Part shown: positions 6,705-47,640 of the stretch, in pieces | How positions within the stretch are numbered: the stretch's first letter is position 1 | How the letters are laid out: each line of letters starts with the position of its first letter | Assembly: GCA_029881495.1 (NCBI GenBank) | Contig: JAOUMJ010000002.1 | Location: 2,087 to 66,086, forward strand | DNA: 64,000 bases | Direction: 5' to 3' | DNA from: Nitrospinota bacterium | GTDB taxonomy: Bacteria; Nitrospinota_A; UBA7883; JACRGQ01 | Program-made: the position numbers and the translations under genes | The notes under the pieces: model-generated | Databases searched by the model: none | What the model saw: only the letters and a program-made list of their open reading frames with translations | Told to the model about the DNA's origin: nothing

Positions 6705-9119
6705 TTAGCTTGTAAGTTTCTTGATCCAGGGGTCATTTTCACCTTCAACCCCTTTTTGTAACAGGTCAATTATCTTGCTGTCGGCAGACGACGACAGGGC
6801 AAGCGCGGATATTCTTCTGATCGAAGGAGACGCGGCTTGGAGTCCCTTGAAAAGGAATTCTACGGATTCACTCTTTTCTATAAAAGCTGGGAGTGAATAG
6901 ACGAATTTCCGTATAGTGTGATTTGTAATCGCAGACGGGTCGAATACGATCCCATGTTTGTCCGTTATAGTATTTAACGCGGAGTACGCCTCAAACCTGT
7001 GTTTTTCAACACCGAGATACTCAAGGAGCATTTCCGCATGTTCGGCCCCTCCGATAACAGAGAGCGCCTTCATGGCTTTGTGCAAAAGAAGAATGTTCGA
7101 ATCGTCCCTTGGCAGGAGCTTTAAAAAGGTTTCCACCCGGGGTAGGGCGCTGTCGATTGTGTAGTCCGTTATATATCCGAGAACGGCAGATTGTATTATC
7201 CAGCTCTCCCTTTCGAGGCAGGGGAGGATGGATTCCGATTCCTTTTCACCGCCTAGCAGAGCAAGAGTTGAGACAGTTTCTGCAACTAATTCCGGTATTT
7301 CATCGTCAAGGATGTTCCTTAGCGCCGGTATTGCCTTTTCGTCGCCGCATTTACCAAGAGCTGTGATGGCAACTATTTTAGTTTCGGAATTCGTATCTGA
7401 GGTAAGCAGTTTCAAAAGAGGCTCGGAAGCTTCCGTCAGGCGGCGCTTCCCTATAGCCCTTACCACATAATTAAGGGTATCTGGTTTTACCTCGCCAAGC
7501 AGATTTACCAGGAGTTCATTTGCTGTCGGATGGACGATACTGCTTAAGGTCCATATCGACTGTACTCTAACCGAGAAATCATCATCGTTGAACAGCTTTG
7601 AAATGGATGTGAAAAGATCCTTTTCGGAAATGTTGTCTCTGTTCTTGTTTCCCTGGTATCCAAAGGAGTGTACGGCCGCGGCGCGGGCCTTTGGGGAGGG
7701 ATCAGAAAATCCATTGAGGAGAATAGGCGCCACGTCGCCCATTGATGAAAAGCCGAGAGCCCGGTACGCGCCCCATCGGATATTTTCATTGCCGGATCTG
7801 GTGAGAGCCTTGATTTTTTCCCTGTTGAATTTTTGCAGGAGAGACATCCCGCCTACGGCCGCTTTCCTTATGGACTCTTCGGGGGATGAAAGCATCGGTA
7901 CGATTTTGTCAAACTGCAGAGATGCCTGCATCATCCCGAGTGATTTGATCGTATCTGCAACGATATCGCTGTCGGGAGAGTCAAGGAAAGGAAGGAGTCT
8001 TTCAGAGTCGTCTTCCTTTCCGAGGAGGCCGATAATCCTTATAAGATTGCTCAATACCTGCTTTTTATCGGATTTCAATCCGGCAAAGATATTTGCCAAT
8101 ATGCCCGGGCCCTGCACTGTTATCAGTTCGCGAACTTCATTTTCAAAAGCGGGGTCCTCAAGTAGCGGGAGAAGATGCTCAACGGAGAATTTGCCTCTGA
8201 AATCCCAAAGTATGTTCAGGGCGGATTTGACTTCTTCCGTTTTTCCTCCAGAGAGCATCTCGATTATCGCGTCTATAATATGCGATGAATCGAGTTTTTT
8301 CAGTTCAAGGTTGGCTTTGTAATAATAAAATCCATGCCGGGTTATCTTCGCGAATTCCCTTTCCCTGTCCCTTATCATCGCCAGGGAGGTTATTCCAGCC
8401 TTTATAAGGTTTTTGTCATCGGTGCCTGAGATGACGTTTATTATCGGGAGGAGACCGCCAAGCTCTCCTATCATCCCGATGGCGGAAATTGCCGGGTAGC
8501 CGAGGATTGGATCATCAAGCATTTCAATCAGCGAAGGGAGCGCGCGCTCATCCCCGATCAATCCAAGCGCGGTTATATAGGGGAATTTGGACCAAGTTTC
8601 TTCCTTTACAACCGCTTCAAGTAGTGTGTCGACAGCCTCCGGGGACCCTATTCTTCCGAGCGCCTCGACGATGGCGTATCGGACGTTTTCATCCGGATCG
8701 TAAATCGAATTAAGAAGATAATTCAGAGCTTCCTTCTTCCCGAGGTTGCCGAGAGTATTAGCGCAGTAGATGCGGACATCGACAGTCGGATCGCTATTTA
8801 GTATTTCTCCAAGCGGCTGGGCAACATCTTCCCCCATCTCCTGAAGCACCGTCATGGCTGTATTTCTTACGGCTGCTCCCGGATCCCTCAAACAGTCAAT
8901 AAGAGGGGCGATACTCTCTTTTTCCTTTATTTTCACCAATGAAGTGGCGGCTGTATTTCGCACCTGCCAATGATCGTCCCCCAGAAGTGCAAGAAGGGGT
9001 TTTACGGCTGTACTCTCGCCGAATTCACCGAGCATCTCCGCGGCCTGTCTGCGAACGGAGAATTCCTCCGATTCCAACTGGCTGATAAAGAATTCAACTT
9101 CATTCATGGTATTAATCAT
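6705..9119 (-). CDS. large HEAT/PBS-lyase-repeat protein (804 aa)
   Basis: More than 15 repeats of the VR..AA.ALG.IG..A...L..LL.D type (PBS lyase HEAT-like) along the whole protein. Confidence 0.8.
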   Translation of the reverse strand: MINTMNEVEFFISQLESEEFSVRRQAAEMLGEFGESTAVKPLLALLGDDHWQVRNTAATSLVKIKEKESIAPLIDCLRDPGAAVRNTAMTVLQEMGEDVAQPLGEILNSDPTVDVRIYCANTLGNLGKKEALNYLLNSIYDPDENVRYAIVEALGRIGSPEAVDTLLEAVVKEETWSKFPYITALGLIGDERALPSLIEMLDDPILGYPAISAIGMIGELGGLLPIINVISGTDDKNLIKAGITSLAMIRDREREFAKITRHGFYYYKANLELKKLDSSHIIDAIIEMLSGGKTEEVKSALNILWDFRGKFSVEHLLPLLEDPAFENEVRELITVQGPGILANIFAGLKSDKKQVLSNLIRIIGLLGKEDDSERLLPFLDSPDSDIVADTIKSLGMMQASLQFDKIVPMLSSPEESIRKAAVGGMSLLQKFNREKIKALTRSGNENIRWGAYRALGFSSMGDVAPILLNGFSDPSPKARAAAVHSFGYQGNKNRDNISEKDLFTSISKLFNDDDFSVRVQSIWTLSSIVHPTANELLVNLLGEVKPDTLNYVVRAIGKRRLTEASEPLLKLLTSDTNSETKIVAITALGKCGDEKAIPALRNILDDEIPELVAETVSTLALLGGEKESESILPCLERESWIIQSAVLGYITDYTIDSALPRVETFLKLLPRDDSNILLLHKAMKALSVIGGAEHAEMLLEYLGVEKHRFEAYSALNTITDKHGIVFDPSAITNHTIRKFVYSLPAFIEKSESVEFLFKGLQAASPSIRRISALALSSSADSKIIDLLQKGVEGENDPWIKKLTS

Positions 9120-9534: not shown

Positions 9535-10428
9535 CTACCCCCTTGGATGGGCTTTCGAATGTATTTTTGAAAGCCTTTCCCGGTTGATATGTGTATAGAT
9601 CTCCGTGGTCGTAAGCGTTGAATGTCCCAGCATGGACTGCACCGACCTAAGGTCGGCGCCTCTTTCCAGCAGATGAGTTGCAAAGGAATGGCGCAGTATG
9701 TGAGGCGATACGCCTCTCCTGATCTCTGCGGTAAGCGCATATTTTTTTAACATAAGCCAGAACGTCTGGCGCGTCATCGGTTTCCCAAGCCTCGAAAGGA
9801 AGAGGGCTTTAACGGGGCGTTTCCCCTTTTCGTATAGGGGCCTGCTTTCAAGCAGATACTTTTCCAGTTTTTCAATGCTTCTCTCGCCAATAGGGATAAG
9901 CCTCTCTTTAGAACCTTTGCCGGAAACCATTATATAGCCTGCCGACAGGTTCAGGTCGGAAGTATTTATCCCGACCAGTTCCGAAACCCGGATGCCTGTG
10001 GAGTAGATCAGCTCGAGCATGGCGGAATCCCTTATTCCTTCGGCTGTTGTTTCGTCGGGCTGCTCAAGCAACCTGTCGATCTCAGACAAGTTCAGAAATT
10101 TTGGGAGTCTTTTCGTGTTTACCGGGTGTTTCATGTTCCGGGTCGGGTCGTTCTCAAACCGGTTCCGGGCAACGCCATACCTGAAAAACATCCTGAGAGA
10201 GGAGAGTTTTCTTGAAATGGAGCGGGATGTGATGTTCTGTTTTCGCAGGAGGGTCATCCACGCTGTCACATCGTGCTGATCGATATTGCCGGAAACATCC
10301 TTTCCGGAGGTTTTCAGCGACTCGATAAAAGATTCCATATCCCGCCTGTACGCATCGACGGTATTTTCGGAAAGATTTCTTTCAACTGTAAGGTGTGTGA
10401 TCCATTCATCCAGAATGGGGAGCATCAA
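9535..10428 (-). CDS. xerD: tyrosine site-specific recombinase XerD/XerC family
   Basis: N-terminal SAM-like core-binding domain (LSENTVDAYRRDM). C-terminal catalytic R..HxxR..Y motifs (RHSFATHLLERGADLRSVQSMLGHSTLTTTEIYTHI). Confidence 0.88.
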   Translation of the reverse strand: MMLPILDEWITHLTVERNLSENTVDAYRRDMESFIESLKTSGKDVSGNIDQHDVTAWMTLLRKQNITSRSISRKLSSLRMFFRYGVARNRFENDPTRNMKHPVNTKRLPKFLNLSEIDRLLEQPDETTAEGIRDSAMLELIYSTGIRVSELVGINTSDLNLSAGYIMVSGKGSKERLIPIGERSIEKLEKYLLESRPLYEKGKRPVKALFLSRLGKPMTRQTFWLMLKKYALTAEIRRGVSPHILRHSFATHLLERGADLRSVQSMLGHSTLTTTEIYTHINRERLSKIHSKAHPRG

Positions 10429-15640: not shown

Positions 15641-15865
15641 ATGCAAGTAGATATTAAGAGGCCGGGAACAGGAAGTATTAAACCTCCATCACAGAGCAGC
15701 GGTATAAATCCTGGAAAGGCGGCGGGGCGATTGAAATCGATGGCTTCCAATGTGCTCAGGAGCTCGAAGCAGGTCGAATCGCACGTTGCGCAGGAGACGC
15801 AGAAGAATGTTCAGGCCGGCAAAAATCCGAAAACTATAAAAGGCGGTATTGATCTAAAGGCTTAG
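15641..15865 (+). CDS. hypothetical small basic protein (74 aa)
   Basis: ORF preceded by AAAGAGGA RBS. No homology recognised. Confidence 0.35.
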   Translation: MQVDIKRPGTGSIKPPSQSSGINPGKAAGRLKSMASNVLRSSKQVESHVAQETQKNVQAGKNPKTIKGGIDLKA

Positions 15866-15954: not shown

Positions 15955-16126
15955 ACGCCCCCCCCAAAAAAATATGGGAGGGATCTAACCCCAGAAAATA
16001 AGGCCCGGTATGTAAGGTGTGACCATATTCTTGTGATAGGGGAGTATCCTTATGGCGAAACCGTGAAGCCCCGCGCTGTCGCAAGGTATCGGCCCTTTGA
16101 AATGGTAGCTCCCTTTCTCGATTTCC
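15955..16126. repeat. left copy of a roughly 170-bp direct repeat; a displaced duplicate of the glgP 3' end (46 codons plus stop-proximal sequence)
   Basis: Near-identical (2-3 mismatches) to 19374-19542. On the minus strand it encodes EIEKGSYHFKGPIPCDSAGLHGFAIRILPYHKNMVTPYIPGLIFWG*. Begins with a C8-A7 homopolymer pair. Confidence 0.9.
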
Positions 16127-16470
16127 AGGAAGCTCTTGTAAAGCGCCAACAGGCATGGGGGACGTATCGGCTCCATGATCCCTCTGGCGCTTGAAGTGCG
16201 CGCTCACGACATGTTTTTAGGCTGTATTCCGAAAAAATCCAATTGCATATTTTAATTACAATTTTATGAAAATAAACTCATATTTACAGGTAATTAAATA
16301 AATACAAAGCTCTCCATCGTAATAAAAATATGCCGTTTTATTTATTTTGTTTGCTACCAGAAATAGGTATATTAATATAATATCGTGCCTATATTAATAC
16401 AGATGTAATGCGTAGTTAATTTATGTGTGACATTTGAGCTAATCAGTTCATTTTAATTTGGGGGTATTTT

Positions 16471-18951
16471 ATGGCGCAAAGAAAGGTTTCCGTTCTCTTC
16501 TCTTCACTCAGGACATTACTGCTCTTTTTTTCTCTTATCCCGTTATTAACGGCTTGTCCAGCCCCTACGGGAGAACCTGTACTGACATCATTGGTCATAT
16601 CGGGTGATTCAGCGATAAATGAAAACAGCAGTGCCACATATACGGCCATGGCGGAGTATGATGACGGCAGTTCCAAGGTTGTCAACGCGTACTGGTCGGA
16701 GGACAGCTCAGACGCTTCCGTGGATACCAGCGGAAAGGTAACAACAACAGAGGTGTCGGCTGACACACTTTTCACCTTGAGGGCCGAATTTGATACAAAG
16801 ACCGCTACCAAGGCGATTACCATTAAGGATGTATTAAATACGACTGACACCACCACTGACACCACGACTGACACCACGACTGACACCACGACTGACACGA
16901 CCACTGACACGACCACTGACACGACCACTGACACGACCACTGACACAGGTACTGGCACCGCCATTCCTTCTGTGACATCGGTTACAATAAACGATGGGGT
17001 CGCTTCGACAATTTCGGCTACCGTTAATGTGTCTATAGATGCTACGGATGACGTTGGTGTTACAGGCTACTTCCTCTCTGAATCAGCCACAACACCGGCG
17101 CTTGCCGATTTCATAGACGCTACATCCGCGGCAACTTTTAACGTCTCGACAACATTTACGCTTAGCGCGACATTTGGCACAAAGACGATTTATGTATGGG
17201 TAAGAGATGCGGCGGGGAATATTTCAGCTTCTGCTTCCGATTCCATAGGCCTTAATAAATTCTATTCAGATACATCTATTTCCATCCCTGATTATGACAA
17301 CGTCAACTGGAATCCCGGTGTTGCGACATCGACGATCAATATATCTGGAGCAACGTTTGTTACCAATGTAAGGGTAGGCGTCGATATCTCCCATGTCGAT
17401 GATCAGGACTTGGAAATAAATTTGATAAGCCCTTCGGGTCGTAGGGTAACTCTTTTCAATTACAGCCCATGGGAAAACCAGGCCACAAACCCTGGCAATA
17501 ATTTGACCTCGGCTGTTTTCGATGACTTTGCGAGCCAGGAAATCTTAAAGTCAACGGGGCCTTTCAGCGGATCGTATCGACCCGTCGGCTACCTCGCGTC
17601 ATTAGTTGGTGAAAGCATTAATGGGAACTGGCAGCTGGAGGTAAATGATTGGGGAGTAGATAACATCGGAACCATAAACGGCTGGAGCCTGGAGTTTGAA
17701 ACCGCCGCCACCGCGACTGTTCCGGTTCCTCCTGCTCCATTTATTTCTTGGAGGTTTTTAGAAAGTCAAGGTACGCCTTCCATGTACTGGCATCAGCTAA
17801 ATAACAGCCTGGAAACCGTAACGACAAATATATATATCGGCACTGCTCCTGGCGTTACTCCGGTTCCGACAAGTACGCCCGATATTTTAAAAATGGCGCC
17901 TGATTATAGCGGGGCCAATTGGTTCAGTCATACCTTCGCCGCCAGCGCTACGACATATTACTATGTGCTGACTTTTGAAACTGCCGCTGGTGAGAGCCTC
18001 CCGTCCGAAGAGTTCCAAATTACAACACCGGATTCAGGGTTAGGAACGCAAACACTGTTGACAAGCGATTACGCGGGTACCGGCGCGATCACCGGCTGGC
18101 TCGGTACAGGAACCTGGGGTACTACCAGCTCGACGGTAAACGCAGGTTCGACATCGTTTACCGATAGCCCGGCAGGGAACTACGCGCCTAATACTAATTA
18201 CTTCCTGACATCCACAACAGGCGTTGATATTTCAGGTTATACAAATCCGGTACTCTCCTTTGCCCACAAATATGATTTTGGTATTTGGACAAACGACACT
18301 GGATTTGTAGAAATTTCTACTGATGCCGGCGTAACGTGGAACCAGTTGGCAGCCTATAACTCCTATGACGGATCGGTGACAGCATGGACGCCAGAAGCGC
18401 TTTCGTTGGCATCTTATGCAGGTGCCCCTTCACTCAGGGTACGATTCAGGTTGTTTATTATGGATAACGGCGTTGCAAACACCTTTGATGGCTGGTATCT
18501 GGACGATATCGCGATCATAGACGTTCCTCCTTCTGGCGTCTATAACTCAACTGGGGCAGTGGCAATTTCAGATAATTCAACTGTGACTTCCACAATAACT
18601 GTTGCGGATACCGGGACAGTTGCCAGTGTCAAGGTATATGTGAATATAACTCATACATGGTCATCTGATATGACAATTGTTCTTATAAGTCCTAGTGGAA
18701 CCAGTCTAATACTGGCTGATGGGCTGGGGTCGATTGATTCTTTTGTCGATACGATCTTTGATGATTCCGCAACCTTGGACATCAATACCGCAGGTGATCC
18801 GTATACAGGCTCGCATAGAGCGGCTTCAATGCTTTCAAACTTAAACGGAGAAACCATAAATGGAACATGGACTCTTGAAGTGACAGATAGCGTGAACGGT
18901 GATGTAGGTACAATAAACAGCTGGTATGTCGAGATTGTTCCTGCTCCTTGA
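16471..18951 (+). CDS. surface lipoprotein with Big-like domains, a (TTDT)n linker and two proprotein-convertase P-domains but no peptidase domain
   Basis: Lipoprotein signal ...LLTAC. Two P-domain blocks: VGVDISHVDDQDLEINLISPSGRRVTLF...INGNWQLEVNDWGVDNIGTINGWSLEFE and VKVYVNITHTWSSDMTIVLISPSGTSLIL...INGTWTLEVTDSVNGDVGTINSWYVEI. No S8 Asp-His-Ser motifs. Confidence 0.8.
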   Translation: MAQRKVSVLFSSLRTLLLFFSLIPLLTACPAPTGEPVLTSLVISGDSAINENSSATYTAMAEYDDGSSKVVNAYWSEDSSDASVDTSGKVTTTEVSADTLFTLRAEFDTKTATKAITIKDVLNTTDTTTDTTTDTTTDTTTDTTTDTTTDTTTDTTTDTGTGTAIPSVTSVTINDGVASTISATVNVSIDATDDVGVTGYFLSESATTPALADFIDATSAATFNVSTTFTLSATFGTKTIYVWVRDAAGNISASASDSIGLNKFYSDTSISIPDYDNVNWNPGVATSTINISGATFVTNVRVGVDISHVDDQDLEINLISPSGRRVTLFNYSPWENQATNPGNNLTSAVFDDFASQEILKSTGPFSGSYRPVGYLASLVGESINGNWQLEVNDWGVDNIGTINGWSLEFETAATATVPVPPAPFISWRFLESQGTPSMYWHQLNNSLETVTTNIYIGTAPGVTPVPTSTPDILKMAPDYSGANWFSHTFAASATTYYYVLTFETAAGESLPSEEFQITTPDSGLGTQTLLTSDYAGTGAITGWLGTGTWGTTSSTVNAGSTSFTDSPAGNYAPNTNYFLTSTTGVDISGYTNPVLSFAHKYDFGIWTNDTGFVEISTDAGVTWNQLAAYNSYDGSVTAWTPEALSLASYAGAPSLRVRFRLFIMDNGVANTFDGWYLDDIAIIDVPPSGVYNSTGAVAISDNSTVTSTITVADTGTVASVKVYVNITHTWSSDMTIVLISPSGTSLILADGLGSIDSFVDTIFDDSATLDINTAGDPYTGSHRAASMLSNLNGETINGTWTLEVTDSVNGDVGTINSWYVEIVPAP
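16841..16948 (+). repeat. about 9 tandem copies of a 12-bp unit (actgacaccacg / actgacacgacc) encoding (TTDT)n inside the lipoprotein gene
   Basis: Read directly in the sequence. The unit is in frame, so copy-number change alters linker length, not reading frame. Confidence 0.9.
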
Positions 18952-18969
18952 CGAGTAATTCAAATGTCA

Positions 18970-19003
18970 GTCGCCATCGGCCCGATTCTGGGCCGATGGT
19001 GAC
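18970..19003 (+). terminator. putative intrinsic terminator after the lipoprotein gene
   Basis: 14-bp stem gtcgccatcggccc/gggccgatggtgac with loop gattct, followed by gtttaat and a T-rich stretch. Confidence 0.45.
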
Positions 19004-19373
19004 GTTTAATCCGCCAGATTTTTGATTTTGCAAAACTCCCCCTAATTCTGTTTGGGGGAGTTCCTTTGGTTTGCACAGCAGTTTGGGGTAGCCACAACCA
19101 AAAGCAACCCCCTTTTAAGGCTTTTGCGAAGGAAGTGAGCGTAGAGGAGCCGGGATTATACAGACCTTTGTGCTTTTCCGCTTCTAAACCGGTTTCCTTG
19201 CGGTTACATCCCCCCTGGGTAAATTTCGCCCCATGTTTGGAGCGTCGAGCGGTTTTTCCGGGAGGGATACAAGAGAATGGGAGAGATATCTGACGGTGCA
19301 GTCCGGTTTTTTTGATTATAGCGGTGCTGGAAACCACCCCCGGAGGTACAATGACGGGGATGAGAATAGAGGC

Positions 19374-19542
19374 TCGCCCCCCCCCAAATATGGGAGGGAT
19401 CTAACCCCAGAAAATAAGGCCCGGTATGTAAGGTGTGACCATATTCTTGTGATAGGGGAGTATTCTTATGGCGAAACCGTGAAGCCCCGCGCTGTCGCAA
19501 GGTATCGACCCTTTGAAATGGTAGCTCCCTTTCTCGATTTCC
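19374..19542. repeat. right copy of the roughly 170-bp direct repeat; the functional 3' end of glgP
   Basis: Begins with a C9 tract followed by aaatatgggagggatctaacc... It is contiguous with the intact glgP reading frame. Confidence 0.9.
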
Positions 19543-21959
19543 CCTTCACACGTCATCGCGATCGATTTACCTTCGTTTATCTCGCCGTTGCTGTCCAGAT
19601 TGCCGTAATAGCACTCTACGACGATATCGTCCGGGGTCAGGTCCCCCAGCCTTACCTTTACCTCGACCGGCTTCAGGTTGCCGACAGCTGGGTGGAGGAA
19701 ACTGTCCTCCTTTATCTCCAATATCTTTATGTGAGGCCAGCCGTTTTTCAGCTTGTGCTTCCAGGCCGCGAGCGATTTTATTATTTCGGGCTGCTGTTCG
19801 ACCTGTTCATGCCAGCGTCTGCCGAGATCGAGGTAGAACTTCTCGGTGTACTCCCTTACCATCCTGTTGGTATTGAAGATCGGGATGAGGTTCATCATGG
19901 CGCTCTTCATCTTCCCTATCCACCCTCTCGGGAGCCCGTCCGTGCCCCTTGTGTAGAAGAGGGGGATGATGTCCTTCTCAAGAATTTCATAGAGGTTTCT
20001 CCCCTCGATAGAATCCTGGATCGCTTCATCCTTGTACTCCTCGCCGGCGCCTATTGCCCATCCGTTTTCATGGGAGTAGATTTCGTCCCACCATCCGTCG
20101 AGAACGGAGAGATTGAGGACGCCGTTTGCGGCGGCTTTCATTCCGCTGGTACCGCTCGCCTCAAGGGGGCGCCGCGGGTTGTTCAGCCAGATGTCGCACC
20201 CCTGAACCATATAGCGGGCGATGTCGATATCGTAATTTTCAAGAAAGATGATCTTTCGAAGGAACCCCATCTCCCTGGCTGTATGGACTATCTTCTTGAT
20301 GAAGTTCTTTCCCTCGGTATCGGCGGGGTGGGCCTTTCCGGCGAATATTATCTGTACGGGCCTCTCCTTGTTCTCAAGGATCTTCTCGAGCCTTTTGAGA
20401 TCGCTTAGGATCAGCGTTCCCCTCTTGTATGTGGCAAATCTCCGGCCAAATCCGATGGTAAGCGCCTCGGGATTAAGCGATTCCTCCGCCTGTTGCATTT
20501 CGGAATCGGACGCCCCCCGCTTCTTCAGCTGTTCGAGGAGCCTTTTGCGCGAAAAGGCCACGAGACGCTCCCTGCGCCTTTCGTGCATGCGCCAGAGTTC
20601 CGCGTCCGGAATGGCGGCGATTTTTTTCCATATGGTGTCGTCTCCCGGTTTGGTTATCCATTTGGTGCCGAGATAGCGTTCGTAGAGGTTTTTCAGCTCC
20701 TCGGATACCCATGTGCGTATATGTATTCCGTTGGTGATCGAGCGGATAGGAACATGGCTCACCGGAAGGCCGGGCCAAATGTTGTGCCACATCTGCCTGG
20801 ATATCTTGCCATGGAGTTTCGAAACTCCGTTATTGCCGGCAGAGAGCCTGAGGGCAAGCACCGTCATGCCGAACGGTTCGTTATGGTCTTCGGGATTGAT
20901 CCTCCCCAGGGTGAGGAGCCTGTCGACATCAAGCCGGGTCTCCCTTAAAAGCGGCTCCATGTATCTTTTGAGCATGCTCTTTTCAAACAGCTCGTTGCCT
21001 GCGGGAACCGGCGTATGGGTTGTGAAAACGGTTGAAACCCTGCACGCCTCCTTTGCTTCAAAGAAGTCGAATCCGTGCTTTTTCATCAGGTGAGCGATAC
21101 GCTCGACCCCCAAAAAGGCGGAATGCCCCTCGTTCATGTGGAATACCGTCGGATTCAGCCCCAGAGCCTCGAATATCTTTATCCCGCCAATGCCGAGGAG
21201 TATCTCCTGCTGTATCCGCATCTCCCTGTCTCCGCCGTAGAGCTGGGATGTTATCTGCCTGTCCTCTGGGGAGTTCTCCTGAATGTTCGTATCGAGGAGA
21301 TAAAGGGGAATTCTGCCGACTTCCGCCTTCCAGATATGCGCATATACGTTTCTTCCAGGGAACGGTATTTCGACCTTTACTGGTATTCTATCCTTCTCCT
21401 CCCTTTTAAGCGGAAGAAGGTAGAGGCTGTTTTCGGGATATTTTTCCTGCTGCCACCCGTCGGGATTGAGGTACTGCGTAAAGTAGCCGTGCGAGTATGC
21501 CAAACCGATCCCGACAAGCGGAAGGCCGAGATCGCTTGCCGATTTCAGATGGTCCCCGGCCAGCACTCCAAGGCCGCCGGAGTATATCGGCAGGCATTCA
21601 TCTATTCCGAATTCAAGCGAGAAATAGGCGATCTTTGTATCCTTGCTCCATTTCTGCAAGTGCTTCTCCTTGAACCATGTATCCGCTTTGAGATATTCCT
21701 CCAGGCTTATCAAAACCGTCTCAAGATGGGTAAGGAATCCGTCGTCCTCGGCAAGTTCGCGCAATCTCTCCTGGGTTGCGGTGCCGAGTACCTTGACCGG
21801 ATTGTGGTTGCAGGAATCCCAAAGGTCGGAATCAATCCTGCGAAGAAGGTTTACCGCGTCATGGTTCCAGGTCCACCAGAGGTTATATGCGATATCTTCA
21901 AGCGGTTTTAGCTTTTCCGGCAGTGAAGGTTCAACTATAAATTTTCTGTACTCAGGCAT
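19401..21959 (-). CDS. glgP: alpha-glucan (glycogen/maltodextrin) phosphorylase, GT35 family
   Basis: 852 aa. PLP-site region EASGTSGMKAAANGVLNLSVLDGWWDE. Overall architecture of the alpha-glucan phosphorylase family. Confidence 0.88.
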   Translation of the reverse strand: MPEYRKFIVEPSLPEKLKPLEDIAYNLWWTWNHDAVNLLRRIDSDLWDSCNHNPVKVLGTATQERLRELAEDDGFLTHLETVLISLEEYLKADTWFKEKHLQKWSKDTKIAYFSLEFGIDECLPIYSGGLGVLAGDHLKSASDLGLPLVGIGLAYSHGYFTQYLNPDGWQQEKYPENSLYLLPLKREEKDRIPVKVEIPFPGRNVYAHIWKAEVGRIPLYLLDTNIQENSPEDRQITSQLYGGDREMRIQQEILLGIGGIKIFEALGLNPTVFHMNEGHSAFLGVERIAHLMKKHGFDFFEAKEACRVSTVFTTHTPVPAGNELFEKSMLKRYMEPLLRETRLDVDRLLTLGRINPEDHNEPFGMTVLALRLSAGNNGVSKLHGKISRQMWHNIWPGLPVSHVPIRSITNGIHIRTWVSEELKNLYERYLGTKWITKPGDDTIWKKIAAIPDAELWRMHERRRERLVAFSRKRLLEQLKKRGASDSEMQQAEESLNPEALTIGFGRRFATYKRGTLILSDLKRLEKILENKERPVQIIFAGKAHPADTEGKNFIKKIVHTAREMGFLRKIIFLENYDIDIARYMVQGCDIWLNNPRRPLEASGTSGMKAAANGVLNLSVLDGWWDEIYSHENGWAIGAGEEYKDEAIQDSIEGRNLYEILEKDIIPLFYTRGTDGLPRGWIGKMKSAMMNLIPIFNTNRMVREYTEKFYLDLGRRWHEQVEQQPEIIKSLAAWKHKLKNGWPHIKILEIKEDSFLHPAVGNLKPVEVKVRLGDLTPDDIVVECYYGNLDSNGEINEGKSIAMTCEGEIEKGSYHFKGSIPCDSAGLHGFAIRILPYHKNMVTPYIPGLIFWG

Positions 21960-23225: not shown

Positions 23226-26200
23226 ATGATAGTTTCCTGCCCAAACTGCGAAAGCAGGTACGATATCGAGCCTGGCGGAATTCCGCAAGGGGGGACATAC
23301 GCGCATTGCACCAATTGCGAAAACATTTTCTTCCTGAAAAAACGTAAAAAGGGTGAAAAACCTCGCGCCGCCGCCGTCGGAGCCGGCTCCGCATTGTCGG
23401 AAAGGGATACCGGCGAGATGAGGATTGCTGAAGATAACGGATTTAATCCAGATACCGACTCATTCCCGACCGGAGAAGAGGAGACGGCGCAGGAGCCGGA
23501 ATCGCTCTTTGATGAGATGTTGAATGAAGGTTTCGACGAAGGCCAGCCTCCGGGCGAACCTATGGAGGAGACATTCGCAAGTCAACAGAACGGTGTTCAG
23601 ACATTTTCAATCGAGGATGAGAACGGAGGTGTTGAAGAGAGCATCGCCGACGCGGTAGAAGAGGATATTGACGAGTTTTCTGACGGCACATCCGAGGTGT
23701 TGGAGCTTGAAGCGCCAAATCTCCTGATGGATGAATCTCTAGCAGAGATTGAAGAGGCCGATTTCGAGAGGGATTCTGAGGACCATATTCTTAATTTCGA
23801 AGATGAGGAAAGCGATGAGCCCCAGACGGTAGAAAATGAGATCAGCGACATTCTTCAGTCGGCAGGTCTGTTCGGCAATGGTGAGGCCGAGCCTATCAAG
23901 GCGGAGAGAGGGTTTTCCAGCATGGAAGAGGCGGGCGGGAGCGAATCCGAAGCGGATATCTTTGATGAAGTTAAATCCGAGATGGATATGTTTGAAGAGG
24001 TGAAATCTGAAATCGAAAAAACCGCGCCCCCCGAGACAATGACTGCCGACCTGGCGGAAGAGAGCGAGGTAGGGAGGATATTTGATGACATAAAGAGCGG
24101 AGCCGTTTCAGACGACAGCGGATCTCCTTCAAGCGAAACCGAATTCCAGGACGAAATAGACAAGCTGTTTGCGATGGCGGATGGGGAGGGAGACGCGTCA
24201 ACGCAGGCAGTCGGAAGAGGGGTGATCGATTCAATACTGGATGATTCCAGTTTTGATACAGAGGAGCATGAAGGGGACGCAATCAACGGCAATGGCGGGT
24301 ACAACAATCCGTTTGAAGAGTCGCTCCTTGGAACAGATTCCGATCCGGTGCATGACGAGGTTGATGATATCTTTTCAAGCGGGGGATTGTTCGATGATGA
24401 ATCTACAGGAGCGAATGCAAAGGAGCGGGGGCTCAAGGAGGGGACAGCGTCAGTACCAATGTCCGTGCAGGATGAGATAGATGAGCTTTTTGAACGTAAC
24501 CAGGAAAAGGGACAGACCTACATCATGCCTGAAAGCGCGGTTGAGGATGTGCTTGCACAGGCGGATCAAAGTTCCAAATCCGGCTTTGACGATGTCGACA
24601 TCGACGCTATATTTGCCGAATCGAGCCAGCAGGAGTTTTCACATGGCACAGAGCCGACTGATACGGAGATAGTAAATCTGGAATATACGCCCTTGCCTGG
24701 AGAGTCCTCCCCAATGGATGAATTTGCTGGCGAGGATATTGAATCCCTCTTTTCGGAAGAAAGCGAAGTTCCAGGCAAAAAAGACTCATTGGCGGAAGTT
24801 GATTCAGAAAAAACGGAATATGGCGGAGGTGGCGTGGAGCTCTCCCTGCAGGATGAAATAAACTCTATCTTGTCAGATTCATCTTCGGATTCGGATTCGC
24901 CGCTTGAATCGCCCGAGGCGCTTAGCGAACTGGATACGATAATATTTGAAAGTACAAAGAGAGGTGATTCTGCAAAAGGGCAGTCTGATGTTGATTCACT
25001 TTTCGATGTGTCAAAAGAGAATGACAAGCCCGAGCCAGCGCCAGCAGAGTTACCCACATCTTCCGGTTCCGGCGCTCAATTCAACATAGACGCCATATTT
25101 GCCGAGGCGGCCGGCGGCGGGTCTACAGGCTCGGCAGAGCCGGAGGCTTCAAAAGGTGTTTCATCAGGCGAAGAGATAGACATAGACGCGATATTTGCCG
25201 AGGTTAAAGGTGGCGGGTCTACAGGCTCGGCAGAGCCGGAGGCTTCAAAAGGTGTTTCATCAGGCGAAGAGATAGACATAGACGCAATATTTGCCGAGGT
25301 TAAAGGTGGCGGGTCTACAGTCTCGGCAGAGCCTGAGGCATCAAAAGACGTTTCGTCAGACGAAGAGATAGACATAGACGCAATATTTGCCGAGGTTAAA
25401 GGTGGCGGGTCTACAGTCTCGGCAGAGCCTGAGGCATCAAAAGATGTTTCATCAGATGAAGAGATAGATATAGACGCAATATTTGCCGAGGTTAAAGGTG
25501 GCGGGTCGACAGGCTCGGCAGAGCCTGAGGCATCAAAAGACGTTTCGTCAGATGAAGAGATAGACATAGACGCGATATTTGCCGAGGCTCAAGGCGGCGG
25601 GTCTACAGTCTCGGCAGAGCCGGAGGCTTCAAAAGATGTTTCGTCAGACGAAGAGATAGACATAGACGCGATATTTGCCGAGGCTCAAGGCGGCGGGTCG
25701 ACAGGCTCGGCAGAGCCGGAGGCTTCAAAAGATGTTTCGTCAGACGAAGAGATAGACATAGACGCGATATTTGCCGAGGCGACAGAAGGTATAGACGCAG
25801 AGCTGACAGATTCAGATACTTCCTCCAGCGTAGATCAAGGGGGACAGGCTGATATTGATGCCTTCTTTGCCGAGACAACCGGTGAAAAGAATGTAATTCC
25901 TGTTGTTGCGGATAAGGAAATTGACGTTAACCTGGGGGGACAGAACGATATAGACGCTATGTTTGCCGAGGCGGCAGGGGGGGAGACCGCTACGGTATCT
26001 GAGGCCCCTTCCGGCGACGACCTCGGCGGTCAGGATGATATTGATTCGATGTTTGCCGAAGCGGCAGGCGGGGAAACTGCTACGGTATCTGAGGCCCCTT
26101 CCGGCGACGACCTCGGCGGTCAGGATGATATTGATTCGATGTTTGCCGAGATGACAGACGGGGAACCCCCCGCGGTATCTGAGGCCCCTTCCGGCGACGA

Positions 26201-27995
26201 CCTCGGCGGTCAGGATGATATTGATTCGATGTTTGCCGAGATGACAGACGGGGAAACCCCCGCGGTATCTGAGGCCCCTTCCGGCGACGACCTCGGCGGT
26301 CAGGATGATATTGATTCGATGTTTGCCGAGATGACAGACGGGGAACCCCCCGCGGTATCCGAGACCACATCAAGCGACGACCTTGGTGGAGATAACGATA
26401 TAGACGCTATGTTTGCCGAGGCGGCAGGGGGGGAGACCGCTACGGTATCCGAGACCCCATCAAGCGACGACCTCGGCGGAGATAACAATTTAGATTCATT
26501 ATTTGGCGAATCAGCCGATAACACGGAGAAGGGGGAATTGGCCTCTGGAGGTGACTCTATGAATGAAGGTATTGATGTTTCATCTGACGATGATTTGGAC
26601 GCTCTTTTCGATGGAGATGCCTCGGAACCTACAGATATTTCCACTCCTGCAGAGCCGAGTTCCGCAGAGGGGACATCAAAGCAGGAAGAGGATGGGGCTG
26701 TAATAAGTCAGGATGATCTGGACGCCTTGTTTTCAGAAGAGGGTGGAGGGGACCCTGGTTCCATGGCAACTGCAGATAGTGCCGCTGATGGAGGGGAAAC
26801 TGACAGCTCCGAAGTAGATTTCGGGATATCCGGCGATAAGGATCTTGATTCGCTGTTCGATGCTGAAGCCGAGACGGCAATAATAGGAGACGAGCCTTCC
26901 TTTGACGCCACCCCTGCTGAAAGCGCGGGCGGAAGCAGCGAAGGGGGGATTGACACTTCAATGCTTGAGAGCGTTTCGGAATCGAATGAGCCTGATCATG
27001 AACTTGAGGAGACAAGCGTAGTCGAAACCCAGAGCGTGGATGGTGAGCAGAAAGTAGGAAAACTCGCCAAAGCAGTGCTGGGGGAGGAGGACGAGTTGGA
27101 TTTTGACGAGCCGGCAGAAAAGAAAAAATTTGGCCTCATAGGGAAATTGGCAAAAGTTGCCATGGCTGCCATGCTCCTTGTAGCAGTCGGGCTTGGAACA
27201 GTAACCTACACAAAAAACCAGAATCCGCTGGCGGTAATTGAGCAGGTAAAATCAAAAGGCTTCGGAGGCCTGGGGATAGGTATGTCTGAGATCCTTTCGT
27301 TCAAAGGTTCCGCCGATGTCGAAGAGATGGAGAAAAAGAGAGAAGAGGGGAAGGAAAGCGCTTCTTCAAAAGTGGATGAATCGAAATCAGACGATCAGGT
27401 CGCTGAAGGTACCGGAGAAGCTGCAGGTGATGGAGGCGGCGACACAAGTGGGGATGGCACAAGTGTTGTGGAACAGAAAGAGTTGACCGGCGTGGTACCT
27501 GTACCTGAAAGAGGTGGAACGGTGGTAGCCGACAAGACTCCGTCGCCGGAATCGTCTCTGCCGCCTTTGGAAGAGGACGCGATAGAGACAGCCGCATTGG
27601 AGCCCGCTCCGGTAAAAGCGGCCGTAACAAAAGCGATACCACCCCCGGGCGAGCGCGGAGAGGAATTTCAGTCGGAAGTCTATGAGAGAAACACGGAGCT
27701 GAAGATAGGGGTAATCGTTCCGGTAGACTTCAACGCCGAAGCCGTGAAGGTTATGACTGCTGATGTTCTGATCACGTTCCAGAACACGTCTGAATACGAT
27801 ATGGCCGACACGAAAAGATATCTGTACGAGATGGCGGTAGAAGAAGAGATCGAGAAATTTTTCCTTGATAAGTTTTATGAAGATACTCTGTATGTTCAGG
27901 ACAAAATCATTGCCCAGCTTAATACTAAATTTAAAAAACGGCCCGAGATGGGGAAAATTGCCGAAATAGATATCGAAAACTTCAAGCTGAAATGA
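23226..27995 (+). CDS. giant (1589 aa) hyper-acidic protein with an N-terminal MJ0042-type zinc ribbon, a roughly 1250-aa repeat-rich acidic linker, one TM helix and a DUF3426-like C-terminal domain
   Basis: N-terminus MIVSCPNCESRYDIEPGGIPQGGTYAHCTNCENIFFLKK (CxxC...CxxC). TM KKKFGLIGKLAKVAMAAMLLVAVGLGTVTY near aa 1300. About 230-aa beta-rich C-terminal domain. Single uninterrupted ORF. Confidence 0.8.
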   Translation: MIVSCPNCESRYDIEPGGIPQGGTYAHCTNCENIFFLKKRKKGEKPRAAAVGAGSALSERDTGEMRIAEDNGFNPDTDSFPTGEEETAQEPESLFDEMLNEGFDEGQPPGEPMEETFASQQNGVQTFSIEDENGGVEESIADAVEEDIDEFSDGTSEVLELEAPNLLMDESLAEIEEADFERDSEDHILNFEDEESDEPQTVENEISDILQSAGLFGNGEAEPIKAERGFSSMEEAGGSESEADIFDEVKSEMDMFEEVKSEIEKTAPPETMTADLAEESEVGRIFDDIKSGAVSDDSGSPSSETEFQDEIDKLFAMADGEGDASTQAVGRGVIDSILDDSSFDTEEHEGDAINGNGGYNNPFEESLLGTDSDPVHDEVDDIFSSGGLFDDESTGANAKERGLKEGTASVPMSVQDEIDELFERNQEKGQTYIMPESAVEDVLAQADQSSKSGFDDVDIDAIFAESSQQEFSHGTEPTDTEIVNLEYTPLPGESSPMDEFAGEDIESLFSEESEVPGKKDSLAEVDSEKTEYGGGGVELSLQDEINSILSDSSSDSDSPLESPEALSELDTIIFESTKRGDSAKGQSDVDSLFDVSKENDKPEPAPAELPTSSGSGAQFNIDAIFAEAAGGGSTGSAEPEASKGVSSGEEIDIDAIFAEVKGGGSTGSAEPEASKGVSSGEEIDIDAIFAEVKGGGSTVSAEPEASKDVSSDEEIDIDAIFAEVKGGGSTVSAEPEASKDVSSDEEIDIDAIFAEVKGGGSTGSAEPEASKDVSSDEEIDIDAIFAEAQGGGSTVSAEPEASKDVSSDEEIDIDAIFAEAQGGGSTGSAEPEASKDVSSDEEIDIDAIFAEATEGIDAELTDSDTSSSVDQGGQADIDAFFAETTGEKNVIPVVADKEIDVNLGGQNDIDAMFAEAAGGETATVSEAPSGDDLGGQDDIDSMFAEAAGGETATVSEAPSGDDLGGQDDIDSMFAEMTDGEPPAVSEAPSGDDLGGQDDIDSMFAEMTDGETPAVSEAPSGDDLGGQDDIDSMFAEMTDGEPPAVSETTSSDDLGGDNDIDAMFAEAAGGETATVSETPSSDDLGGDNNLDSLFGESADNTEKGELASGGDSMNEGIDVSSDDDLDALFDGDASEPTDISTPAEPSSAEGTSKQEEDGAVISQDDLDALFSEEGGGDPGSMATADSAADGGETDSSEVDFGISGDKDLDSLFDAEAETAIIGDEPSFDATPAESAGGSSEGGIDTSMLESVSESNEPDHELEETSVVETQSVDGEQKVGKLAKAVLGEEDELDFDEPAEKKKFGLIGKLAKVAMAAMLLVAVGLGTVTYTKNQNPLAVIEQVKSKGFGGLGIGMSEILSFKGSADVEEMEKKREEGKESASSKVDESKSDDQVAEGTGEAAGDGGGDTSGDGTSVVEQKELTGVVPVPERGGTVVADKTPSPESSLPPLEEDAIETAALEPAPVKAAVTKAIPPPGERGEEFQSEVYERNTELKIGVIVPVDFNAEAVKVMTADVLITFQNTSEYDMADTKRYLYEMAVEEEIEKFFLDKFYEDTLYVQDKIIAQLNTKFKKRPEMGKIAEIDIENFKLK
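25084..25780 (+). repeat. coding tandem array A: 96-bp unit x about 7.25, encoding DIDAIFAEVKGGGSTGSAEPEASKGVSSGEEI
   Basis: Unit boundaries at 25084, 25180, 25276 and so on up to 25757. Copies differ by a few synonymous or conservative substitutions. Confidence 0.9.
25935..26500 (+). repeat. coding tandem array B: 90-bp unit x about 6.3, encoding GGQDDIDSMFAE(A/M)(A/T)(G/D)GE(T/P)(A/P)xVSEAPSGDDL
   Basis: Read directly in the sequence. Distinct from array A but carrying the same DIDxMFAE core. Confidence 0.9.
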
Positions 27996-47179: not shown

Positions 47180-47549
47180 GGAGGCGGACGGATGGTCGCC
47201 TTGCCGCTTTACCGCGGTGGGGAGGAAAGTCCGGACACCGCAGAGCAGGGCACTTCCTAACAGGAAGCGGGAGCGATCCCAGGGAAAGTACCACAGAAAA
47301 TATACCGCCCGCCTATGGCGGGTAAGGGTGAAATGGCGAGGTAAGAGCTCACCGGGTCTGCGGCGACGCAGGCCGCATGGCAAACCCTGCCCGGTGCAAG
47401 GCCAAATAGGGGAGCGCGCCCCGCAAGGGGCAGGAGGCGGCTCGCCTTCGGCTCCCGGGTAGGCCGCACGACGTTGCCGGCAACGGCAATGCTAGAGGAA
47501 TGACCGTCGCCCCGAAAGGGGTACAGAATCCGGCTTACAGTCCGCCTCC
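47180..47549 (+). ncRNA. rnpB: RNase P RNA (bacterial type A)
   Basis: P1 helix ggaggcggac...gtccgcctcc. Conserved blocks GGAGGAAAGTCCGGAC, ACAGAAAATATACCGCC, GGTAAGGGTGAAATGGCGAGGTAAGAGCTCACC, GCAAGGCCAAATAGGGG, CCGGGTAGG and ACAGAATCCGGCTTA, all in canonical order. Confidence 0.92.
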
Positions 47550-47640
47550 ATTTATTGCTAAACGGATGAGGTTGCATTCAGAGACAGATACAGTGAAATG
47601 ATATTTCCCGCGCCGGGGCAGGGGGCGGTTCGGCAGAGGA

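Follow-up and report, generated by a model that had tools for sequence, protein, structure and literature searches.

P-domains (Pfam PF01483, P_proprotein) are classically tied to peptidases of family S8, and RefSeq also holds P-domain proteins that lack a peptidase. Like the protein described here, these have at least one PF01483 domain and no S8 domain, occur in a secreted or surface setting and combine the P-domain with other beta-sandwich modules. The product name that such genes receive in RefSeq, from the Prokaryotic Genome Annotation Pipeline (PGAP), is "proprotein convertase P-domain-containing protein", and genes on Aquisphaera and Chondrinema plasmids are further examples of P-domain proteins so named that have no peptidase domain. 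In addition, a survey of fibrillar adhesins (Monzon et al. 2022) contains a candidate tip-domain cluster with P_proprotein as its best structural match (PMC9210967). Here, we analysed a stretch of 64,000 nucleotides (nt) from a Nitrospinota bacterium (assembly GCA_029881495.1, contig JAOUMJ010000002.1, positions 2,087 to 66,086), the whole of which is referred to below as the window. An open reading frame (ORF) at 16471..18951 on the plus strand encodes a P-domain lipoprotein of 826 amino acids (aa); these are exactly the boundaries given in an earlier reading of the letters alone (the sequence-only reading), and the ORF is intact in a second assembly (~99.9% identity). The protein has two P-domains and no peptidase domain, and its gene lies on an insert at the 3' end of glgP. 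On balance, we favor its being a lipid-anchored, non-catalytic binding protein, in which a short stalk would carry a P-FN3-MAM-P head for a glycan or polymer ligand.

Two P-domains within a modular lipoprotein

When PF01483 was compared with the whole protein, two stretches were matched with an E-value of 6e-33. Scored as separate segments against a gathering score of 21 bits, P-domain 1 (17278..17700; all features within the gene are on the plus strand) reached 60.1 bits (E 2e-16; Pfam envelope aa 298-409), and P-domain 2 (18535..18948; aa 689-826, Pfam envelope aa 718-820) reached 68 bits (E 8e-19). Both are far above the gathering score, and the Pfam profile therefore supports the two P-domains that the sequence-only reading had placed at aa ~290-400 and ~720-826. 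The two copies are only 37% identical to each other, which rules out a recent internal duplication. Among structures in the PDB, sequence matches were limited to the P-domain of the Aeromonas sobria serine protease (ASP; 3hjr/3wqb), with an E-value of 2e-9. A full-length AlphaFold model built from the single sequence was unusable, with a mean predicted local distance difference test (pLDDT) score of 35. The region of aa 410-826 was modelled with AlphaFold2 on an alignment of 43 sequences, and in this model P-domain 2 was predicted at a pLDDT of ~97. The 27 best matches of the P-domain 2 model in the PDB (Foldseek) were all to ASP, furin or Kex2, with E-values of 5e-7 to 8e-6 over ~150-190 aligned columns and a root-mean-square deviation of ~3 Å for the better furin superpositions. 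We regard the P-domain assignment as solid, on sequence for both copies and on the predicted structure for the second.

In the N-terminus of the protein (MAQRKVSVLFSSLRTLLLFFSLIPLLTA-C29), a basic n-region and a hydrophobic h-region precede a canonical lipobox, LLTA-C29 (16471..16557; motif [LVI][ASTVI][GAS]C at aa 26-29), and C29 is the sole Cys of the 826 aa. The signal sequence and lipobox are thus complete as sequence motifs, in agreement with the lipoprotein call made earlier. Beyond the lipobox lies an N-terminal beta-rich module (aa 33-121; 16567..16833), Big_2-like by eye only, which is 49-51% identical to repeats of a protein from a Desulfobacteraceae metagenome-assembled genome (MAG; P0014). 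It is followed by the (TTDT)9 spacer (aa 124-159; 16840..16947), which was found by repeat detection as a 12-nt tandem repeat at the place where it had been read from the letters, and whose copy number differs between the two assemblies. In the second copy of the locus (ENA contig ERZ27296367:k141_300392, L001), which is 99.85-99.97% identical to the window, the gene encodes an 814-aa product with 36 nt (12 aa, three 12-nt units) fewer inside the TTDT tract (~8356-8426 of that contig), and this in-frame repeat change is the only length difference of the ORF between the two assemblies. Since the assemblies are otherwise ~99.9% identical, the (TTDT)n tract is an in-frame variable-number tandem repeat that alters the length of the spacer. 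Neither the exact 826-aa protein nor the 814-aa variant had an entry in the protein collection searched. An antisense ORF on the minus strand (16443-16964, 173 aa, VVSVVVS...) was rejected as a gene, as it is the reverse-complement reading of the TTDT repeat.

The spacer is followed by an Ig/FN3-like module (aa 160-262; 16948..17256), which shares ~50% identity with tandem repeats of metagenome proteins 626 aa long and is weakly Ig/FN3-like, with Pfam Big_7 at an E-value of 0.37 and, in a profile comparison with the PDB, the FN3 domain of chitinase A1 at 0.0065. The Big-like domains proposed in the sequence-only reading were therefore only weakly borne out in this module, and aa 33-121 gave no match. 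Between the two P-domains, an FN3-like module (aa 413-520; 17707..18030) was recognized by alignment with the Pfam-fn3-positive region of two related proteins (P0047 and P0251), and aa 413-520 itself had no direct match in the segment-wise Pfam scan. The adjoining module (aa 536-685; 18076..18525) is a jelly roll that resembles MAM domains and Reelin subrepeat B. As a single sequence, it scored 25.8 bits with Reelin_subrepeat-B, slightly below the gathering score of 27, while a profile of 31 sequences matched Reelin structures at an E-value of 2e-14 and the MAM-like domain of the InhA metalloprotease (4yu5) at 1e-6. It also contains an Asp-box (S-x-D-x-G-x-T-W) as STDAGVTW at aa 616-623. Homologues of this segment carry InhA-like_MAM, Reelin_subrepeat-B and BNR, and pass the Pfam models in 21-22 of 40 relatives. 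With the profile and the Asp-box, the MAM/jelly-roll-like domain noticed from the letters now has a match at the family level. All 826 aa are assigned to the signal peptide, to linker or to beta-sandwich modules.

P-domains without a peptidase

The Peptidase_S8 family (PF00082) had no match on any segment of the protein at E<=10 in the Pfam scan, and neither the HGT nor the GTSxA motif of S8 peptidases was found in the protein, which has only 6 His. The 280 aa between the P-domains are taken up by the FN3-like and MAM-like modules, and with the full 826 aa assigned, an S8 domain of ~300 aa would not fit. The whole window was also searched by tblastn with eleven S8+P proteins; their alignments were confined to the non-catalytic P, FN3 or Ig parts at their C-termini and to the lipoprotein gene, so that the 64-kb window holds no S8 catalytic domain by this search, and hence no S8 gene that could pair with the lipoprotein within the extent searched. 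A degenerate S8 domain between the P-domains is ruled out by the Pfam, profile, tblastn and motif evidence; the statement in the sequence-only reading that no catalytic domain is present thus holds for the interval and for the protein as a whole.

The same reading had taken a P-domain without a peptidase to be unusual, and this premise did not survive. In a word-indexed search with aa 265-826, PF01483 was carried by 54 of 59 matches and accompanied by PF00082 in only 12 of those 54, leaving a majority of the nearest relatives (42/54) without S8. A further 7 PF01483 matches have trypsin, reprolysin-type or M6-type domains, and the remaining matches pair the P-domain with HYR, DUF11, FN3, tails of the type IX secretion system (T9SS) and similar modules. 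The partner domains found in relatives, including HYR, DUF11, SdrD_B, SpaA, the T9SS tail and dockerin, are typical of surface and adhesin proteins. The closest P-domain relatives (P0042, P0044 and P0045; 44-47% identity) have two P-domains each and no peptidase domain, and other peptidase-less relatives combine five P-domains with a T9SS tail (P0137) or six with FG-GAP (P0210). Near relatives of the query P-domain are also fused to S8, since a 1,522-aa metagenome protein (L085, 3157-7725, plus strand) has Peptidase_S8 at aa 323-585 and, ~400 aa further on, a P-domain 46% identical to that of the query; its C-terminal stretch is MAM-like by eye.

An exhaustive HMMER scan over 1.84 billion cluster representatives gave 12,224 matches at E<=1e-3, 571 of them at E<=1e-30, and the list was headed by giant proteins in which as many as 13 stretches were matched; some giants exceed 5,000 aa, and the longest has 5,764 aa. 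Among the top 150 matches (P0101-P0250), 79 had P-domains only, 68 had MAM-like modules only and 2 had both. These giant proteins form a very large population in which arrays of either P-domains or MAM/Reelin-B-like modules are built up, seldom both. Among the 40 top matches of <=1,250 aa, P_proprotein was found in 18, Reelin_subrepeat-B in 22 and InhA-like_MAM in 21, and Peptidase_S8 was not among the 25 families listed for these 40 proteins, including the 18 with a P-domain. Apart from the 2 proteins among the top 150, P and MAM-like modules were combined in P0043, whose order is FN3-like, InhA-MAM, fn3 and P, and which is the best overall analogue of the 826-aa protein. The full-length homologue search gave no full-length relative, with module-level matches (9-19% coverage) dominating; a metagenome scan for relatives of full architecture gave 10 loci, none with the same architecture (0/10); and the P-FN3-MAM-P order was repeated in no retrieved protein or metagenome locus. 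These searches therefore divide the architecture in two: P-domains without a peptidase are commonplace among bacterial surface proteins, and what is rare is only the P-FN3-MAM-P combination. A bacterial P-domain should accordingly not be taken as evidence of a convertase, and the missing S8 domain is no anomaly. A small member such as the 826-aa protein offers a tractable way into the very large family of P-only and MAM-only arrays.

Insertion at the 3' end of glgP

The gene next to the lipoprotein gene is glgP (19401..21959, minus strand), which encodes an alpha-glucan phosphorylase (NCBI name) of 852 aa with Pfam DUF3417, Phosphorylase and GlgP_C. A direct repeat of 166-171 nt, with copies 96% identical, was detected on either side of the lipoprotein gene. 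The right copy (19377..19542, minus strand), defined by repeat detection and alignment, is the 3' end in use by glgP. The left copy (15956..16126, minus strand), defined by repeat detection and translation, is a displaced duplicate of it that comprises the last 46 glgP codons, the stop codon and ~25 nt downstream; its translation is that of the GlgP C-terminus apart from a single S->P change, and an independent gene caller reported it as a 63-aa GlgP_C (PF28476) fragment. The lipoprotein gene is the sole substantial ORF in the ~3.25 kb between the copies, and the insert comes to ~3.4 kb overall. Upstream of the gene, the non-coding part of the insert (16127..16470, plus strand) is AT-rich (GC 0.34, and 0.27 over 16200-16470) and presumably holds the promoter and ribosome-binding site, the promoter being no more than presumed because the plus strand upstream of the gene has no match to the sigma-70 consensus. 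The 3' non-coding part (18952..19376, plus strand) has a terminator-like hairpin at 19039-19058. The only Rfam match in the insert flanks, to Vault RNA (19186-19313, plus strand; 24.5 bits vs. a gathering score of 34, E 0.043), was judged most likely to be due to chance.

The gene order SLT-GlgP-NYN-RidA-Ddl is kept without the lipoprotein gene in two relatives. In one of them, a GTDB species representative labelled Nitrospirae (L002), GlgP is 68% identical, and in the other, a contig from the same metagenome sample (L095) whose empty site was located via a member of the GlgP cluster, GlgP is 88% and the DNA ~77% identical. The gap between GlgP and NYN is 4.48 kb in the window, compared to ~0.75 kb in L002 and 0.9 kb in L095, and the intergenic homology with L095 stops at position 15846 of the window and restarts at 19400. 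The DNA pattern of the empty site had no match in JGI metagenomes, a collection from which the species may be absent. A 74-aa ORF (15641-15865, plus strand) lies between NYN and glgP, and a 75-aa ORF is found at the same place in the insert-free L095; it has no Pfam match. The lipoprotein gene has the lowest GC content at third codon positions (GC3) of 39 ORFs (0.469, vs. 0.507-0.697 for the others) and the most deviant codon usage. Taken together, the ~170-nt glgP duplication, the two empty-site relatives and the lowest GC3 support the horizontally acquired segment proposed in the sequence-only reading.

Between the two repeat copies there are 2 substitutions and a homopolymer indel, whereas orthologous DNA is ~22% diverged; judged from these sequences, the insertion is young compared with the split from L095, provided that gene conversion has not homogenized the copies. 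The comparison with L095 or L002 did not give the polarity of the two substitutions. A Xer-type recombinase gene (9535-10428) keeps its syntenic position in L002, which has the empty site, and thus does not belong to the insert. The insertion may have come about by Campbell-type integration of a circular molecule that carried part of glgP, or by homology-facilitated illegitimate recombination. A phage origin was ruled out, as there were no relatives in viral contigs or in the phage collection. A target duplication of ~170 nt around a single-gene insert, with neither integrase nor transposase nor tRNA, is an unusual insertion signature. The locus provides a clean, datable case of the acquisition of a single surface-protein gene in an uncultured lineage labelled Nitrospinota.

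Elsewhere in the window, a 1,589-aa ORF (23226-27995, plus strand), partly conserved in L002 and L095, encodes an N-terminal zinc-ribbon (Zn_ribbon_4) and contains long tandem repeats (24990-26559; 96 nt x8 and 90 nt x6), along with a strong local GC and AT skew. An 804-aa protein (6705-9119, minus strand) consists almost wholly of HEAT/PBS-lyase-type repeats. A complete bacterial RNase P class A RNA lies at 47180-47553 (plus strand, 317.6 bits), and no tRNA genes were found in the 64 kb.

Probable function and comparison with known systems

The architecture, anchored by a lipobox and made up entirely of beta-sandwich modules, makes an adhesin or binding function plausible, which is a reasonable inference from the sequence. 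As we picture it, the protein would be exported by Sec and then lipidated at Cys29. The stalk would consist of the N-terminal beta module, the Thr/Asp-rich (TTDT)n spacer of variable length and the Ig/FN3-like module, and would project a distal head (P-domain, FN3, MAM-like jelly roll, P-domain). This head would bind an external ligand without cleaving it, the likeliest candidates being a glycan and a proteinaceous polymer. P and MAM-like modules, which in other bacterial proteins serve secreted peptidases (S8, M6, M14, trypsin and reprolysin types) as non-catalytic accessories, would here be used alone, and the gene would have entered the MAG lineage labelled Nitrospinota as a single-gene insertion of ~3.4 kb at the 3' end of glgP, leaving the ~170-nt duplication behind.

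A number of points weigh against this reading of function and origin. We infer lipidation, surface exposure, the binding function and the ligand class, and in a diderm the lipoprotein may be turned towards the periplasm instead of the exterior. The N-terminal module (aa 33-121) had no significant match in the Pfam scan or in the profile comparison with the PDB. The modelled P-domain fold is that of the second copy, P-domain 1 being assigned by sequence, and the FN3 and MAM parts of the aa 410-826 model stay at a pLDDT below 50 because only ~8 homologues cover them. A partner peptidase may be encoded outside the 64 kb, and the insert and its immediate surroundings contain no integrase, transposase or tRNA.

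Of the other explanations, the one that fares best, still an unlikely one, is that the protein is a structural component of the envelope or matrix (S-layer-associated or in a biofilm) with no specific ligand, the modules serving as spacers or units of self-association. Matrix and envelope proteins, too, typically show an all-beta modular build, a Thr-rich linker and an in-frame variable repeat number, and the giant homologues are long arrays of the same modules; the 826-aa protein, however, has most of its modules in single copy and no long homogeneous array, and the lack of the gene in the two close relatives L002 and L095 argues against a core structural role. Somewhat less probable again is a trans-acting accessory or docking subunit, which would bind, stabilise, tether or regulate at the surface a secreted peptidase encoded elsewhere, its free P and MAM-like modules mimicking the role that the P-domain has in cis in kexins and ASP. 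In characterized proteins, the S8 domain is helped to fold and kept stable by the P-domain (PMC2605481), the P-domain of ASP is the part contacted by a chaperone (title of PDB entry 3wqb), and both module types have relatives that occur in fusion with peptidases of the S8, M14, trypsin and reprolysin types. Such a role is harder to reconcile with a 64-kb window free of S8 catalytic domains, with the three close relatives, which have no adjoining peptidase gene, with the arrival of the gene alone on a single-gene insert, and with the closest relatives being likewise peptidase-less. That the gene is a non-functional remnant, either a former peptidase gene minus its catalytic domain or decaying junk cargo, is very improbable, for although P-domains have their classical tie to S8 and the codon usage is atypical, the ORF is uninterrupted over 826 codons in two assemblies with only the in-frame 36-nt length change, both P-domains score far above threshold, the signal peptide and lipobox are complete, and a whole clade of relatives is peptidase-less.

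A wider, speculative and rather improbable extension of the favored binding-protein reading is that peptidase-less "protease-accessory" beta-sandwich proteins make up a large class of bacterial surface receptors, and that the lipoprotein gene is a strain-variable cassette which moves between close relatives free of any integrase. Recombination between the ~170-nt glgP-derived repeats would excise the gene, and homologous re-integration of the Campbell type at glgP would insert it.

When the locus is set beside described systems, none of the proteins retrieved has the P-FN3-MAM-P order together with a lipobox, a Big-like module and a TTDT spacer. Kexin and furin convertases and ASP (MEROPS S8B; 1p8j, 2id4 and 3hjr) have the P-domain fold in common with P-domain 2, as modelled. 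Unlike them, the protein described here has no subtilase catalytic domain, prodomain or triad motifs, and it has two P-domains rather than one, neither of which adjoins a catalytic domain. The MAM-like domain of InhA (M6; 4yu5) and Reelin subrepeat B (3a7q) match aa 536-685 at the profile level, and the Asp-box is typical of Reelin subrepeats; in contrast to InhA, no M6 catalytic domain is present. Islands inserted by integrases at the 3' ends of genes share with this locus an insertion that restores the reading frame, a flanking direct repeat, an atypical composition and absence from relatives, but the insert here is ~3.4 kb with one gene and has no integrase, transposase or tRNA, and its duplication of ~170 nt is far longer than the target duplication of a transposon. 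With respect to fibrillar adhesins, the anchor here is an N-terminal lipobox instead of a C-terminal sortase or T9SS signal, and the proposed stalk consists of 2-3 heterogeneous modules and a low-complexity spacer in place of a homogeneous repeat array; nevertheless, a stalk of putatively Ig-like modules with distal candidate binding domains is what the 826-aa lipoprotein would have in common with fibrillar adhesins and "fibrillar enzymes" (PMC9210967).

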